Shown piece after piece: positions 37,420-53,476 of a stretch of 54,367 nt of DNA. Under the pieces are notes generated by a model. It did no database searches. It was not told where the DNA came from and saw only the letters and a list, made by a program, of their open reading frames with translations. How positions within the stretch are numbered: the first letter of the stretch is position 1; each line of letters starts with the position of its first letter. The DNA is from a virus (lineage: Duplodnaviria > Heunggongvirae > Uroviricota > Caudoviricetes). Location: IMG/VR virus record IMGVR_UViG_2531839448_000005, positions 1 to 54,367 of that record. One strand, written 5' to 3'. A program made the position numbers and the translations under genes.

Positions 37420-37494
<75 letters not shown>

Positions 37495-37497
37495 ATA

Positions 37498-37573
<76 letters not shown>

Positions 37574-37575
37574 AC

Positions 37576-37652
37576 TGGACCGCCACCGGGGACTCGAACC
37601 TCGCACACTCAACTTAAAGGGTTGACGCTCTTTCCTGATGAGCTAGTGGCGG
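37576..37652 (-). tRNA. tRNA-like, anticodon loop CCUUUAA (putative UUU/Lys, non-canonical C33)
   Basis: 77 nt; 7 bp acceptor stem, TTCGAGT T-loop, CCA end; one mismatch in the T stem. Confidence 0.45.
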
Positions 37653-37653
37653 C

Positions 37654-37729
37654 TGGTGGCCCTTGCTGGATTTGAACCAGCGACCTGGCGATTATGAGTC
37701 GCTCGCTCTCACCACTGAGCTAAAGGGCC
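37654..37729 (-). tRNA. tRNA-Ile2/Met (anticodon CAU), ileX/ileZ-like
   Basis: 76 nt cloverleaf, anticodon loop CUCAUAA, close to E. coli ileX as recalled. Confidence 0.8.
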
Positions 37730-41142: not shown

Positions 41143-41298
41143 TTACTCCTCAGGTTCGTAAGCTGTGAAGACAGCGACCTCCGTCTGGCCGGTTCGGATT
41201 CGTACCTCGCAGAGGTCTTTCCTCGTTACCAGTACCGTCACTATGACGGTTAAACAGATGACGATCAGGGCGATTAACATCGCCTTTTGCTGCTTCAT
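41143..41298 (-). CDS. hokD: Hok/Gef-family type I toxin
   Basis: MKQQKAMLIALIVICLTVIVTVLVTRKDLCEVRIRTGQTEVAVFTAYEPEE, near-identical to HokD/RelF as recalled. Confidence 0.85.
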   Translation of the reverse strand: MKQQKAMLIALIVICLTVIVTVLVTRKDLCEVRIRTGQTEVAVFTAYEPEE

Positions 41299-41558
41299 AG
41301 CCTGCTTCTCCTTGCCTTTCGGCACGTAAGAGGCTAACCTACATTTGTGAGACATAGATTGGGCCTCAGATTAATGTTAAGCGTCTTGCAGGACGCGTAA
41401 TGTTAACTGGGGCTTTTCTCTATCTGCCTTTTGGTGTTCATGCCCGAGGCAGATAGCCTCAAGCACCCGCAGCAATTCTACTTAACTCTCCTTTTCCCGC
41501 AAACCGTTTTTGCTCACCATGATAAGTCGTTATTGTAATTAATTGACATAACGATTAG

Positions 41559-46562: not shown

Positions 46563-46988
46563 TCAATGTACTGCCACAGCATTTCCTGCCGGGCCACCAC
46601 GGTTCATCTGATTGAAACCGGCGATTGCCACTGCGACAAAATCATCAGCGTCTCTCACCAATCGCTCCCGCGTCTCCACCAGCTCCCGAAAATAAGCTGA
46701 ACTGTGGCTGCGCATTCTGGCCACCAGCAAAGGTGGCATTGCCTTTTCGATCGCTGGTAACAACGCCTGAATTTTTTCAACTGCATCAGGGGTGTCTTTC
46801 TCTACCCAGCGGAAAATTTTCTGGGTATTGCGAGCCAAGGCTTCCGGATGGCTGTCGTCATACAGTTCCGGGAACGTCATTCCCAGCTCGAAATACGCTT
46901 TGGTAATTTTCGCAGCCGGTACTTTTTCGCCGTCCGGATGCGCCCAGGCATTCATCGCCATGCGGATGTGTTCATGCTTGATTTTCAT
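46563..46988 (-). CDS. YdaT-like protein (Rac-type immunity region)
   Basis: 141 aa ORF directly downstream of the cro-like gene. Confidence 0.45.
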   Translation of the reverse strand: MKIKHEHIRMAMNAWAHPDGEKVPAAKITKAYFELGMTFPELYDDSHPEALARNTQKIFRWVEKDTPDAVEKIQALLPAIEKAMPPLLVARMRSHSSAYFRELVETRERLVRDADDFVAVAIAGFNQMNRGGPAGNAVAVH

Positions 46989-47239
46989 GAATCAACTCCC
47001 ATCAGCTTTTTCGTAGTAGTTTTATTCCTGCCAATAGTTAAAATTGCATCGGCAGAAAATAATCCGTTTGATGCAAGAGCGATTTTTTCAGCGTAATTTG
47101 TTTCGCCGGTATATTCTGTGCGAGGCAATTTTCCGTTATCCATCCATTTATAGATTGCTCTTTGGCTGACACCACAAACGTCGGCCACAACAGCAACGCG
47201 AACAGTTTTGATTACATCTTCAAGTGTTTTCTGGTTCAT
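46985..47239 (-). CDS. Cro/YdaS-like HTH regulator
   Basis: start MNQKTLEDVIK; HTH VCGVSQRAIYKWM; divergent from the repressor. Confidence 0.55.
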   Translation of the reverse strand: MNQKTLEDVIKTVRVAVVADVCGVSQRAIYKWMDNGKLPRTEYTGETNYAEKIALASNGLFSADAILTIGRNKTTTKKLMGVDS

Positions 47240-47318: not shown

Positions 47319-47738
47319 ATGGTTCATGAAGATAAAGCGCGTAAAGAGTTCGCCAGTAGGCTTGCGCTAGCCTGTGAAAACGCTGGTTATGAACAACATG
47401 GAAGGCAGGCAGAAATTGCCCGTCGAATGAAATTAACACCAAAAGCGGTTAGCAAATGGTTTAATGGCGAAACAATTCCTCGCCGGGAGAAATTAAGGGA
47501 ATTAGCAACACTAATAGGAACAACACCAACCTATCTTTTGGGAGAGGATACAGAAGAAAGTGGACAGGTACGTTTCTATCAGGAGTTAAATCCAAGACAA
47601 AAAATCATCATTGACCTTCTGGACGAGCTCCCTGACAGTGAGACAGATGAACTTTTAAAAACTCTTGAAGAGAAAAAACAGAAGTACAATGCAATTTACG
47701 AAGAGTTAGCACGAAAGAAAAAACAAAAAGCCTCTTAA
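47319..47738 (+). CDS. prophage repressor (HTH, RacR-like)
   Basis: 139 aa; HTH ARRMKLTPKAVSKWFNGE; divergent from the cro-like gene. Confidence 0.6.
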   Translation: MVHEDKARKEFASRLALACENAGYEQHGRQAEIARRMKLTPKAVSKWFNGETIPRREKLRELATLIGTTPTYLLGEDTEESGQVRFYQELNPRQKIIIDLLDELPDSETDELLKTLEEKKQKYNAIYEELARKKKQKAS

Positions 47739-48035: not shown

Positions 48036-48191
48036 ATGGATACTATCAATCTTGGCAACAGCGAATCTCTGGTATGTGGCGTGTTCCCCAACCAGGACGG
48101 TACGTTCACCGCAATGACGTATACCAAAAGCAAAACGTTTAAAACCGAATCTGGAGCGCGTCGCTGGCTGGAAAGAAATTCAGGTGGGTGA
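48036..48191 (+). CDS. hypothetical protein
   Basis: start MDTINLGNSES. Confidence 0.3.
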   Translation: MDTINLGNSESLVCGVFPNQDGTFTAMTYTKSKTFKTESGARRWLERNSGG

Positions 48192-48192
48192 T

Positions 48193-48321
48193 ATGGATTT
48201 CGACACAATCATGGAAAAGGCTTACGAAGAATACTTCGAAGGCCTTGCCGAAGGCGAAGAAGCTCTCAGCTTCAGTGAGTTTAAACAGGCGCTTTCCAGC
48301 TCGGCAAAATCTAACGGCTGA
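48193..48321 (+). CDS. hypothetical small acidic protein
   Basis: manual 42-codon ORF MDFDTIMEKAYEEYFEG; below the track cutoff. Confidence 0.3.
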   Translation: MDFDTIMEKAYEEYFEGLAEGEEALSFSEFKQALSSSAKSNG

Positions 48322-48350: not shown

Positions 48351-48569
48351 ATGCAGAAACGAGAACCCGTCATCATCGCGCCAGATTATACCGATGATGA
48401 ACTTTATGAGTGGATGCGCCAGAAAATTAATGCAGCGCAGGATCTGAAATGGGCCAATGAAGCCAGGGCTAAGCAGGCTGAAAATCTGTCCGCTCTGGAG
48501 CAGGATATCACCAGGCTGGAAAAAGCAGCGGCATTAAGCATTGCCAGAATGATTACATACCCGCGTTAA
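48351..48569 (+). CDS. hypothetical protein
   Basis: 72 aa ORF. Confidence 0.4.
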   Translation: MQKREPVIIAPDYTDDELYEWMRQKINAAQDLKWANEARAKQAENLSALEQDITRLEKAAALSIARMITYPR

Positions 48570-49130
48570 TAGCTAACCAACGAAGCTAAGGTTGGTAATT
48601 AAGGAGTTCTCCACGGGTGAGGTGGAGTGCGTGCGCCGGACACGGGTGAGCATCCGGCACTGACAGTTTACTGAAAGGATATTTCCATGAAAAGTCAGAC
48701 CATAACGCGAAAGCGCACGGCGAGGTAGCTGGTTCATAGATAGCCTGTCGTTAAATTTTCGTCGGCCGTGCGCTTCCGGTTGTGGCACTCCGCGAAATGG
48801 CGCGGCGGTAAGTATGGCGGGGTTATTCCTTCCCCGTTGAGGACACCTGGTTGTCAGGTTGACCATACGCTTAAGTGACAACCCCGCTGCAACGCCCTCT
48901 GTTATCAATTTTCTGGTGACGTTTGGCGGTATCAGTTTTACTCCGTGACTGCTCTGCCGCCCTTTTTAAAGTGAATTTTGTGATGCGGTGAATGCGGCTA
49001 AGCGCACGCGGAACAGTTAAAACCAAAAACAGTGTTATGGGTGGATTCTCTGTATCCGGCGTTAATTGTTAACTGGTTAACGTCACCTGGAGGCACCAGG
49101 CACCGCATCACAAAACTCATTGTTGAGGGC
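48570..49130 (+). other. about 560 bp structured non-coding region (several hairpins, long-range inverted repeat)
   Basis: hairpins CCAACgaagctaagGTTGG and GCCGGAcacgggtgagcaTCCGGC; 9 bp GCGCACGGC/GCCGTGCGC pair; 15 bp inverted repeat TTTTGTGATGCGGTG / CACCGCATCACAAAA. Confidence 0.3.
48930..48966 (+). terminator. candidate terminator inside the non-coding region
   Basis: GGCGG...CCGCC stem followed by CTTTTT. Confidence 0.3.
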
Positions 49131-49135
49131 GCGAT

Positions 49136-49325
49136 AATGAAAACGTTATTACCAAACGTTAATACGTCTGAAGGTTGTTTTGAAATTGGTGTCACTATCA
49201 GTAATCCTGTATTTACTGAAGATGCCATTAACAAAAGAAAACACGAACGGGAGTTATTAAATAAAGTATGCATTGTTTCAATGCTGGCCCGTTTACGTCT
49301 GATGCCAAAAGGATGTGCACAATGA
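49136..49325 (+). CDS. hypothetical protein
   Basis: 62 aa ORF. Confidence 0.35.
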
Positions 49326-49513
49326 ATCCAGTATTTGCACTTATTCTGACGGTTTTTCTTGTTTCCGGAGAGCCAGTTGATATTGCAGTCAGTGTTCACA
49401 GAACAATGCAGGAATGTATGGCAGCAGCAACCGAACAGAAAATTCCAGGCAACTGTTATCCGGTCGATAAAGTTATTCACCAGGATAATAACGAAATCCC
49501 GGCAGGTCTTTAA
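49322..49513 (+). CDS. small secreted or membrane protein
   Basis: start MNPVFALILTVFLVSG, signal-like N-terminus. Confidence 0.35.
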   Translation: MNPVFALILTVFLVSGEPVDIAVSVHRTMQECMAAATEQKIPGNCYPVDKVIHQDNNEIPAGL

Positions 49514-53386: not shown

Positions 53387-53476
53387 TGGCGGAGAGAGGG
53401 GGATTTGAACCCCCGGTGGAGTTGCCCCCACTCCGGTTTTCGAGACCGGTCCGTTCAGCCGCTCCGGCATCTCTCC
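53387..53476 (-). tRNA. serU: tRNA-Ser (anticodon CGA)
   Basis: 90 nt with long variable arm, anticodon loop CUCGAAA, CCA encoded. Confidence 0.85.

Follow-up and report, generated by a model that had tools for sequence, protein, structure and literature searches.

Structured RNA domains of the dicF spacer in a Qin-like lambdoid prophage of Escherichia coli and their relation to DicF processing

The dicF locus and its operon

We analyzed a window of 54,367 nucleotides, the whole stretch covered by the viral record IMGVR_UViG_2531839448_000005, with emphasis on the untranslated region at positions 48570-49130. The window is 100% identical to E. coli CV839-06 over 1.1 kb around this region's small RNA gene, and the spacer is 98% identical, with no internal gaps, to its equivalent in K-12 MG1655. 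There, it is annotated as "small regulatory RNA DicF" (b1574), with ydfC and dicB as flanking genes, in the cryptic prophage Qin. Of 5426 complete E. coli genomes, 4756 contain matches, as a rule several per genome. According to RefSeq annotation and Pfam matches, ydfC and dicB flank the region, and the operon to which it belongs is controlled by dicA/dicC and is part of a lambdoid prophage (Table 1). The element in the window also carries a Q antiterminator, a tRNA cluster, hokD/sok, lysis genes, and an 813-aa exonuclease. Its integrase is frameshifted (a pseudogene) and lies at tRNA-Ser(CGA) beside mtfA, with integrase and tRNA-Ser at 52.3-53.5 kb.

The K-12 promoter of this operon, dicBp, is described as PL-like and DicA-repressed, and as the sole transcription start with no internal promoter (PMC10448788). 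Since dicBp is PL-like, the label "early-left operon" that the first-pass annotation had given to the region is apt. Transcription of the operon would run from left to right in window coordinates, starting at a DicA-repressed PL-like promoter upstream of ydfA.

Table 1. Genes, RNA features, and open reading frames (ORFs) at the dicF locus, in window coordinates
Feature	Position	Strand	Evidence or remark
HTH gene divergent from the dicA-like gene, at the dicC position	46985-47239	-	
dicA-like repressor gene	47319-47738	+	HTH_3, 37.9 bits; dicA position of K-12
ydfA/DUF1391	48036-48191	+	Pfam, 96.6 bits
ydfB	48193-48321	+	upstream of ydfC
ydfC, last CDS before the non-coding stretch	48351-48569	+	RefSeq "protein YdfC" in CV839-06 and K-12
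ydfC-proximal 3' untranslated segment, four small hairpins	48570-48699	+	fold z = -2.3
111-aa TTG ORF	48573-48908	-	ORF list
Stem A, 86-nt hairpin, 23 predicted pairs, putative upstream RNase III site	48700-48785	+	MFE -36.7 kcal/mol, z = -3.4
36-aa GTG ORF	48768-48878	+	ORF list
Pre-DicF body	48787-48899	+	85-100% identical in 128/128 loci
Hairpin UGUUAUCA / UGGUGACG, arms 48900-48907 / 48914-48921	48900-48921	+	single-sequence folds and RNAalifold consensus
DicF sRNA, 53 nt	48910-48962	+	Rfam RF00039; identical to K-12 dicF b1574
Stem-B domain, 18-pair closing helix and four smaller predicted helices	48972-49119	+	MFE -58.6 kcal/mol, z = -5.3
dicB in-frame upstream extension	from 49032	+	ORF list
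dicB Shine-Dalgarno sequence, GAGGG	49125-49129	+	
dicB CDS	49137-49325	+	Pfam DicB PF05358, 135.4 bits, full length
ydfD/DUF1482, after dicB	49322-49513	+	Pfam, 87.9 bits

An Rfam scan of the whole window, one of the checks proposed by the first-pass annotation, finds DicF (RF00039) on the + strand at 48911-48962. The hit covers model positions 1-52 of 52 and scores 76.7 bits (E = 3e-15), where the gathering score is 48. All 53 of its 53 positions are identical to K-12 DicF, and we placed the 5' end according to the K-12 dicF annotation. The architecture matches that of the Rfam family, with a single-stranded 5' seed, a terminator hairpin with an internal loop (48925-48961), and a U-tract (48963-48967). 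Specifically, the MFE fold of 48905-48970 contains the same terminator hairpin followed by UUUUU, with the terminator stem at 48925-48931 / 48955-48961, the inner stem at 48933-48937 / 48947-48951, and U5 at 48963-48967. The terminator-like hairpin noted earlier near 48930-48965 is this intrinsic terminator of DicF. A simple promoter/terminator scan of the region, in which nothing exceeded shuffle expectation, missed it because its apical part is larger than the 8-nt loop limit. Among the roles that the first-pass annotation had offered for the region, that of a prophage small RNA is the correct one, dicF being present by both the Rfam match and the K-12 annotation.

In K-12, mature DicF depends on Hfq and represses ftsZ, manX, xylR, and pykA by base-pairing (PMC10448788, PMC5069750, PMC9438474). 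Because the sRNA sequence is identical, DicF of the window probably acts as it does in K-12, in which case it would block division and alter sugar metabolism through the ftsZ, manX, xylR, and pykA mRNAs.

Folding and conservation of the spacer

The first-pass annotation had reported several strong hairpins, and folding confirms them. As RNA, 48570-49137 (568 nt) folds to -223.1 kcal/mol, compared with -187.4 +/- 8.0 kcal/mol for dinucleotide shuffles (z = -4.49), and 0 of 100 shuffles fold as well. Taken singly, two long domains are significant as well, at z = -3.4 (48700-48786) and z = -5.3 (48972-49119). Both are built on inverted repeats that had been noticed before. The 9-bp perfect pair, GCGCACGGC (48713-48721) and GCCGTGCGC (48765-48773), is the core of a 14-nt inverted repeat (48708-48721 / 48765-48778, 93%, 43 nt between arms) and of the 86-nt hairpin that we call stem A. 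The 15-bp perfect inverted repeat, TTTTGTGATGCGGTG (48976-48990) and CACCGCATCACAAAA (49101-49115), extends to 19 nt at 95% (48972-48990 / 49101-49119), encloses 110 nt, and closes the 148-nt stem-B domain. By arithmetic, chance would produce a perfect inverted match of 15 nt over a span of a few hundred bases only about 1e-4 times. A third inverted repeat lies at 48817-48831 / 48873-48887.

Two further complementarities were seen within the spacer. The DicF seed at 48915-48923 is a perfect 9-nt complement of 49079-49087; both segments are invariant, and about 1.5 such matches are expected by chance in 900 nt. In the MFE fold, CGCCCUC (48894-48900) pairs with GAGGGCG (49125-49131), a possible anti-Shine-Dalgarno pairing that we treated as chance; K-12 has GAGGACG at this place.

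To compare the spacer with its homologues, we scanned IMG/VR and GTDB genomes with the DicF core, which yielded 128 usable dicF loci. The IMG/VR loci are limited to near-identical DicF cores by an exact 22-mer, and a scan of genome contigs with a degenerate core contributed only 8 loci, so that the diversity in the sample comes from IMG/VR. Every one of the 128 loci has stem A, the precursor body, and DicF, with 75-100% identity, and only a few, which end at a contig edge, lack the stem-B domain. ydfC is found in 49/128 loci. Often, dicB has diverged or given way to other sequence; one locus has isrK and a C4 RNA after the spacer instead. The first part of the spacer, 48570-48699, which contains a 10-nt direct repeat (CACGGGTGAG, at 48612 and 48641), reaches an aligned length of 80% or more in just 66/128 loci and therefore falls outside the universally shared dicF module. 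The conserved unit is a module of about 425 nt (48700-49124), as judged from these alignments, with mosaic ydfC and dicB flanks.

Within this module, the two long stems differ in the kind of comparative support that they receive. The covariation analysis across homologous prophages that the first-pass annotation had called for gave a positive answer for stem B but almost no signal for stem A. In 44 distinct homologues, pairing in the stem-B closing helix reaches 99.6%; six positions have G-U wobbles, a single CG->UG->UA series is seen, and the covariation score of the whole domain exceeds those of all 500 shuffles. In 35 distinct homologues of stem A, 89.6% of cells are paired, most changes are C->U opposite G, and indels are found in the apical loop, which is hypervariable. 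These 35 homologues have practically no two-sided covariation, with one pair only, which shuffles equal. Therefore, the support for stem A, whose 23 pairs include a near-continuous run of 13 with one single-base bulge, consists of conservation and wobble tolerance.

The interior of the stem-B domain has a 5' half that is hypervariable with indels and a 3' half that is invariant in 44 variants and carries operator-like GTTAA(C) repeats at 49063-49083. Domains of the stem-B type are also found elsewhere without dicF.

The minority variants also indicate which molecule is under constraint. They are mostly G-U in stem A and almost exclusively G-U in stem B, not A-C; for stem B, the 55-sequence alignment contains 44 G-U cells and one A-C cell, and the 44-sequence alignment has the same pattern. 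Therefore, the constrained molecule is the + strand RNA.

Between the two stems, the pre-DicF body consists of a near-invariant stretch (48793-48816), a variable hairpin (about 48817-48848), and a conserved hairpin (48849-48857 / 48876-48884). Some loci have a different hairpin in place of the variable one, with compensatory UA->CG and CG->UA changes in 3 sequences each. The hairpin at 48900-48921 has a 6-nt AU-rich loop (48908-48913) that holds the mature DicF 5' end (U48909|U48910), and its variation is wobble-compatible only (UG->UA in 8/55). As modeled, this hairpin may sequester the DicF seed in the precursor.

DicF processing and alternative readings

In K-12, the 190-nt pre-DicF is RNase III-dependent, with a cut given as "813/814", the 5' end of the 53-nt DicF is RNase E-dependent, and terminated and read-through transcripts both occur (PMC10448788). 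The 3' end of DicF arises by termination or, in a 72-nt form, through RNase III (PMC5069750, PMC9438474). To place these products, we transferred K-12 coordinates to the window through the gap-free alignment. For the numbering of PMC10448788, we took the annotated DicF 3' end as the end of the 190-nt product, which puts +1 near K-12 1648432; this mapping was adopted because the 1,608-nt transcript then ends 54 nt past ydfD. A 1,146-nt figure from the same paper, on which we did not rely, would end in the stem-B 3' arm under this mapping.

By arithmetic, 190 nt counted back from the DicF 3' end lead to 48773, in the 3' arm of stem A, and 72 nt counted from 48910 end at 48981, in the 5' arm of stem B. 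The partner of 48981 on the stem-B 3' arm is at about 49110, 27 nt before the dicB AUG. Stems A and B offer about two turns of double-stranded RNA, as is suited to RNase III, and their positions agree with the 190-nt and 72-nt products. In addition, a transcriptome-wide comparison of the wild type with an RNase III mutant lists a site at K-12 1649470 as "intergenic dicF-dicB, known" (PMC5371410, Table S1). This site, which is based on only 26 reads, corresponds to about 48998 in the window, inside the stem-B domain and 8 nt past its 5' arm rather than in the arm. The hairpins of the spacer coincide with the DicF terminator and with the positions that we infer for the published RNase III and RNase E sites (PMC10448788, PMC5069750, PMC9438474).

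By analogy with K-12, from which RNase III-dependent cleavage, RNase E processing, and Hfq binding in this strain are carried over, processing would proceed as follows. RNase III would cut stem A, probably at 48772/48773, to give a pre-DicF of about 190 nt, and RNase E would cut in the AU-rich loop, at U48909|U48910, to produce the mature 5' end. The 3' end could form by two routes. In the first, transcription would end by intrinsic termination at the hairpin and U-tract (48925-48967). In the second, which concerns read-through transcripts, RNase III would cut the 18-bp helix of stem B, with probable cuts near 48981 and 49110, to give the 72-nt DicF and to free a dicB-ydfD message with a presumed leader of about 27 nt.

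We are highly confident in reading the region as the untranslated ydfC-dicF-dicB spacer in the dicBF operon of a Qin-like lambdoid E. coli prophage, and in DicF processing as the explanation of its structures. The parts of this reading differ in their basis. The identity of the locus, its context, its structures, and the conservation pattern are our own observations. The nucleases and product sizes are taken, by analogy, from published work on K-12, whose locus is 98% identical, and the exact cut positions in the window would follow by arithmetic from product sizes that later papers cite. For both RNase III helices, the comparative result modestly supports the processing model in the literature.

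Alternatively, the stem-B domain (about 48981-49110) could be a second regulatory RNA of the STnc100/PasD kind, which RNase III would excise from read-through transcripts by cuts in both arms of the closing helix. Besides DicF, no Rfam family matches the region above threshold; STnc100 (RF02076) matches below threshold, at 38.8 bits against a gathering score of 47, but with E = 1e-6 the match is non-random, and nine other dicF loci match at 31-40 bits. The STnc100 consensus structure aligns with the predicted closing helix and 3' hairpins: the closing helix is the same, and the shared 3' hairpin keeps its pairing through a G-C to U-A change. For an element that precedes tciA, the score is 43 bits in P7 and 33 bits in P1. 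The domain also occurs in places that lack dicF, and the invariance of the 3' half of the interior would suit a functional RNA. However, model positions 1-20 and 155-206, which we take to include the family terminator, have no counterpart here, and the hypervariable 5' half with its indels is what is expected of a spacer. STnc100 and PasD, its reported relative, are described as Hfq-associated prophage sRNAs (bioRxiv 10.64898/2026.05.13.724894), but we found no stable RNA from the dicF-dicB spacer described in the papers that we consulted. On balance, we regard this reading as unlikely.

A second possibility concerns the decision between terminated DicF and read-through into dicB. The segment 48794-48823, a near-invariant stretch that includes GGCGCGGCGG at 48799-48808, can pair with the 3' half of DicF (48940-48967), an arrangement incompatible with the terminator hairpin, and might thereby act as a terminator/anti-terminator switch. 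The RNAalifold consensus of 55 sequences prefers this long-range helix over the terminator, and the duplex (-31.1 kcal/mol) ranks 4th of 9056 + strand windows, as the second-best locus. When 48700-48970 is folded, the long-range helix is the MFE structure (-98.8 kcal/mol, compared with -97.3 kcal/mol when the terminator is forced) and accounts for about 85% of the ensemble. When the folded segment is 48570-48970 or 48570-49137, however, the terminator holds 88-98% of the ensemble, so that the winner depends on the boundaries chosen, and the energy gap of about 1.5 kcal/mol is within model error. Both segments are almost invariant and hence allow no covariation test, and local hairpins may capture the upstream segment first during transcription. 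The terminated and read-through transcripts of K-12 (PMC10448788) are outputs that a switch would produce. The first-pass annotation had also considered an antitermination RNA. In the nut/put sense this is not supported: a search of 48570-49130 found no boxA-like motif, with window-wide counts at chance, and no nut-like motif or Rfam antitermination family was matched. We consider the switch quite improbable.

The two ideas can be combined. The stem-B domain would then be a diverged STnc100/PasD member released as an RNA of about 130 nt, and the long-range pairing would disable the terminator, so that the module would have three outputs. If this were true, the module would decide between terminated DicF, the 72-nt DicF with a second RNA, and a translatable dicB mRNA. 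We find this combination unlikely.

It is very unlikely that the inverted repeats work at the DNA level, whether in recombination, as an attachment site, or as a palindrome bound by a protein. The perfect 15-bp repeat could form a DNA cruciform, folding of the - strand (z = -6.1) is on a par with that of the + strand, and the GTTAA(C) repeats resemble operators. Nevertheless, the variation in the stem-B arms bears the + strand RNA signature described above, and the same G-U pairs would correspond to A-C mismatches on the opposite strand or in a DNA duplex, which speaks against the recombination site that the first-pass annotation had listed as an option. Moreover, the repeats lie inside the operon, far from the prophage ends (integrase and tRNA-Ser at 52.3-53.5 kb), and known RNase III processing accounts for both stems.

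Finally, the region contains little that could encode protein, as the first-pass annotation had stated for the transcribed strand. On the + strand, 48570-49130 holds only the 36-aa GTG ORF and the upstream extension of dicB, and a Pfam search of the 111-aa ORF on the - strand gave no match. Homologous loci have frequent 1-nt indels within 48787-48905, and therefore conserved coding is excluded on both strands. A hidden small-protein gene in the 36-aa or the 111-aa ORF is thus very improbable: both ORFs are mechanically present, but indels and the hairpin replacement fall inside both of them, a 13-codon ORF at 48688 has its ATG changed to CTG in K-12, and RefSeq has no CDS here in CV839-06 or K-12.

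Comparison with known systems

Characterisation of the dicBF system goes back to 1989-1990, with renewed study in 2016-2023, and DicF has a role in virulence regulation in EHEC. The features found here are real and already known, namely, dicF, its terminator, and the processing hairpins, and the results leave the knowledge of DicF unchanged. Their value lies partly in annotation. DicF inhibits cell division and regulates metabolism, yet in the RefSeq annotation of CV839-06, the genome that matches best, dicF is unannotated and the 567-bp gap between ydfC and dicB is empty. Consequently, scans for structured non-coding DNA will keep rediscovering dicF. Beyond the unannotated gap, what remains is the comparative support for the helices and, as hypotheses, the relation to STnc100 and the terminator-competing pairing. 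In broader terms, the module of about 425 nt (RNase III hairpin, pre-DicF body, DicF, and RNase III domain) travels intact through mosaic prophages.

The closest known system is the dicBF operon of K-12 Qin, which has the same order of genes (dicC-like, dicA-like, ydfA, ydfB, ydfC, dicF, dicB, and ydfD) and the same spacer lengths (340 nt from ydfC to dicF and 174 nt from dicF to dicB in both). In contrast to Qin, the element in the window is a fuller prophage with a longer dicA-ydfA gap. Its stem A has one extra C-G pair, and its stem B is perfect, whereas that of K-12 has two G-U wobbles.

More distantly, the locus recalls the PL operon of lambda (N leader; sib retroregulator), where a long helix in a PL-type early-left transcript is processed by RNase III. 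The likeness consists of a long helix, imperfect or perfect, in such a transcript, and one of these helices sits immediately before a ribosome-binding site. Here, the translation or stability of dicB may be affected.

The stem-B domain itself can be compared with STnc100 (RF02076), to which it aligns at model positions 21-154 of 206 only, with the 5' leader and positions 155-206 absent. The closing helix is GcaUGGUG / CACCAugC in STnc100 and GAUGCGGUG / CACCGCAUC in the window, and the two share a GGUGAAU motif and a CCNGG-AGGCA-CCNGG hairpin. They differ in location: the window domain is part of an early operon and is closely followed by a CDS, but the reported sites of STnc100 and PasD are close to Q, stx, and lysis genes.

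A related arrangement occurs in P1 and P7. The P1 record has a misc_feature "dicF-like region" at 68791-68892, whose likeness to the window is by annotation name, and a copy of the stem-B-type domain lies about 1.2 kb downstream of the dicF-like region. The P1 copy shares a 28-nt exact match with the window, and the P7 copy has 79% coverage and 81.5% identity. In contrast to the contiguous module of the window, the two pieces in P1/P7 are split by tRNA genes and two opposite-strand genes, and they precede tciA-C and ban, not dicB. Through these comparisons, the spacer domain is linked to STnc100-like elements of P1/P7 and Stx-type phages.

A predicted alternative pairing for the DicF terminator

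In the 100%-identical genome NZ_CP025753.1, RefSeq (PGAP) places zero features between ydfC and dicB (3962917-3963483, equivalent to window 48570-49136); dicF is annotated in K-12 but unannotated in this genome. Within the interval, we predict a long-range helix of ~25 pairs between 48794-48823 and 48940-48967, with a duplex energy of -31 kcal/mol. If formed, this helix would sequester the 3' arm of the DicF terminator together with its U-tract. The energy gap between the long-range helix conformer and the DicF terminator conformer is ~1.5 kcal/mol, and RNAalifold, applied to 55 sequences, picks the long-range helix. Covariation is uninformative on this pairing because both arms are nearly invariant.

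Limits of the dicF module and neighboring elements

On the ydfC side, the spacer carries a perfect 10-nt direct repeat, CACGGGTGAG, at 48612-48621 and 48641-48650 (spaced 29 nt apart). This segment, like ydfC itself, is absent from many dicF loci and stands outside the shared dicF module. On the downstream side, one IMG/VR contig (L047) has the dicF module and its STnc100-like domain followed by isrK and a C4 antisense RNA, which take the place of dicB. Therefore, the dicF module joins varied downstream cargo.

Elsewhere in the prophage, a sok antitoxin RNA adjoins a gene annotated as hokD in the matching genome, and the two constitute a type I toxin-antitoxin module. A four-tRNA cluster adjoins the Q antiterminator gene; its CAT-anticodon member is called Met by ARAGORN and Ile by RefSeq. 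In addition, a tRNA-Ser(CGA) gene beside a frameshifted integrase and mtfA shows where the prophage ends and where it integrated.

Features located in the window and in related sequences (L131 and L132 carry related copies of the spacer domain)
Feature	Location	Strand	Score or remark
Spacer-domain copy	window 48972-49119		
Spacer-domain copy	L131:1501-1620		
Spacer-domain copy	L132:1501-1616		
dicF module and STnc100-like domain, then isrK + C4 antisense RNA	L047:1796-2260	-	isrK 67 bits, C4 80.6 bits
sok antitoxin RNA	41293-41468	-	Rfam, 120 bits
tRNA cluster, 4 genes	37420-37729	-	Gly-TCC, Thr-TGT, Lys-TTT, CAT-anticodon tRNA
tRNA-Ser(CGA)	53387-53476	-	beside frameshifted integrase and mtfA

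The domain between dicF and dicB

In a set of 44 variants, the interior of the spacer domain divides into two parts: the 5' half (49020-49055) carries insertions and is hypervariable, and the 3' half (49056-49100, GGCGTTAATTGTTAACTGGTTAACGTCACCTGGAGGCACCAGG) is almost invariant and contains three GTTAA(C/T) repeats. Ahead of its annotated ATG, dicB has 35 further open codons in frame, starting from a GTG at 49032 (49032-49325, +), and this extension crosses the 3' arm of stem B, the helix that closes the domain. The open frame recalls a published title, according to which DicB is reportedly translated from an in-phase internal start.

Copies of the spacer domain score 31-43 bits against Rfam STnc100, vs a gathering score of 47, and the domain appears to be a sub-threshold relative of that family. 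It is found again upstream of tciA, within the ban operons of P1, P7, and D6, and the P1 record has an annotated "dicF-like region" 1.2 kb upstream of P1's own copy.
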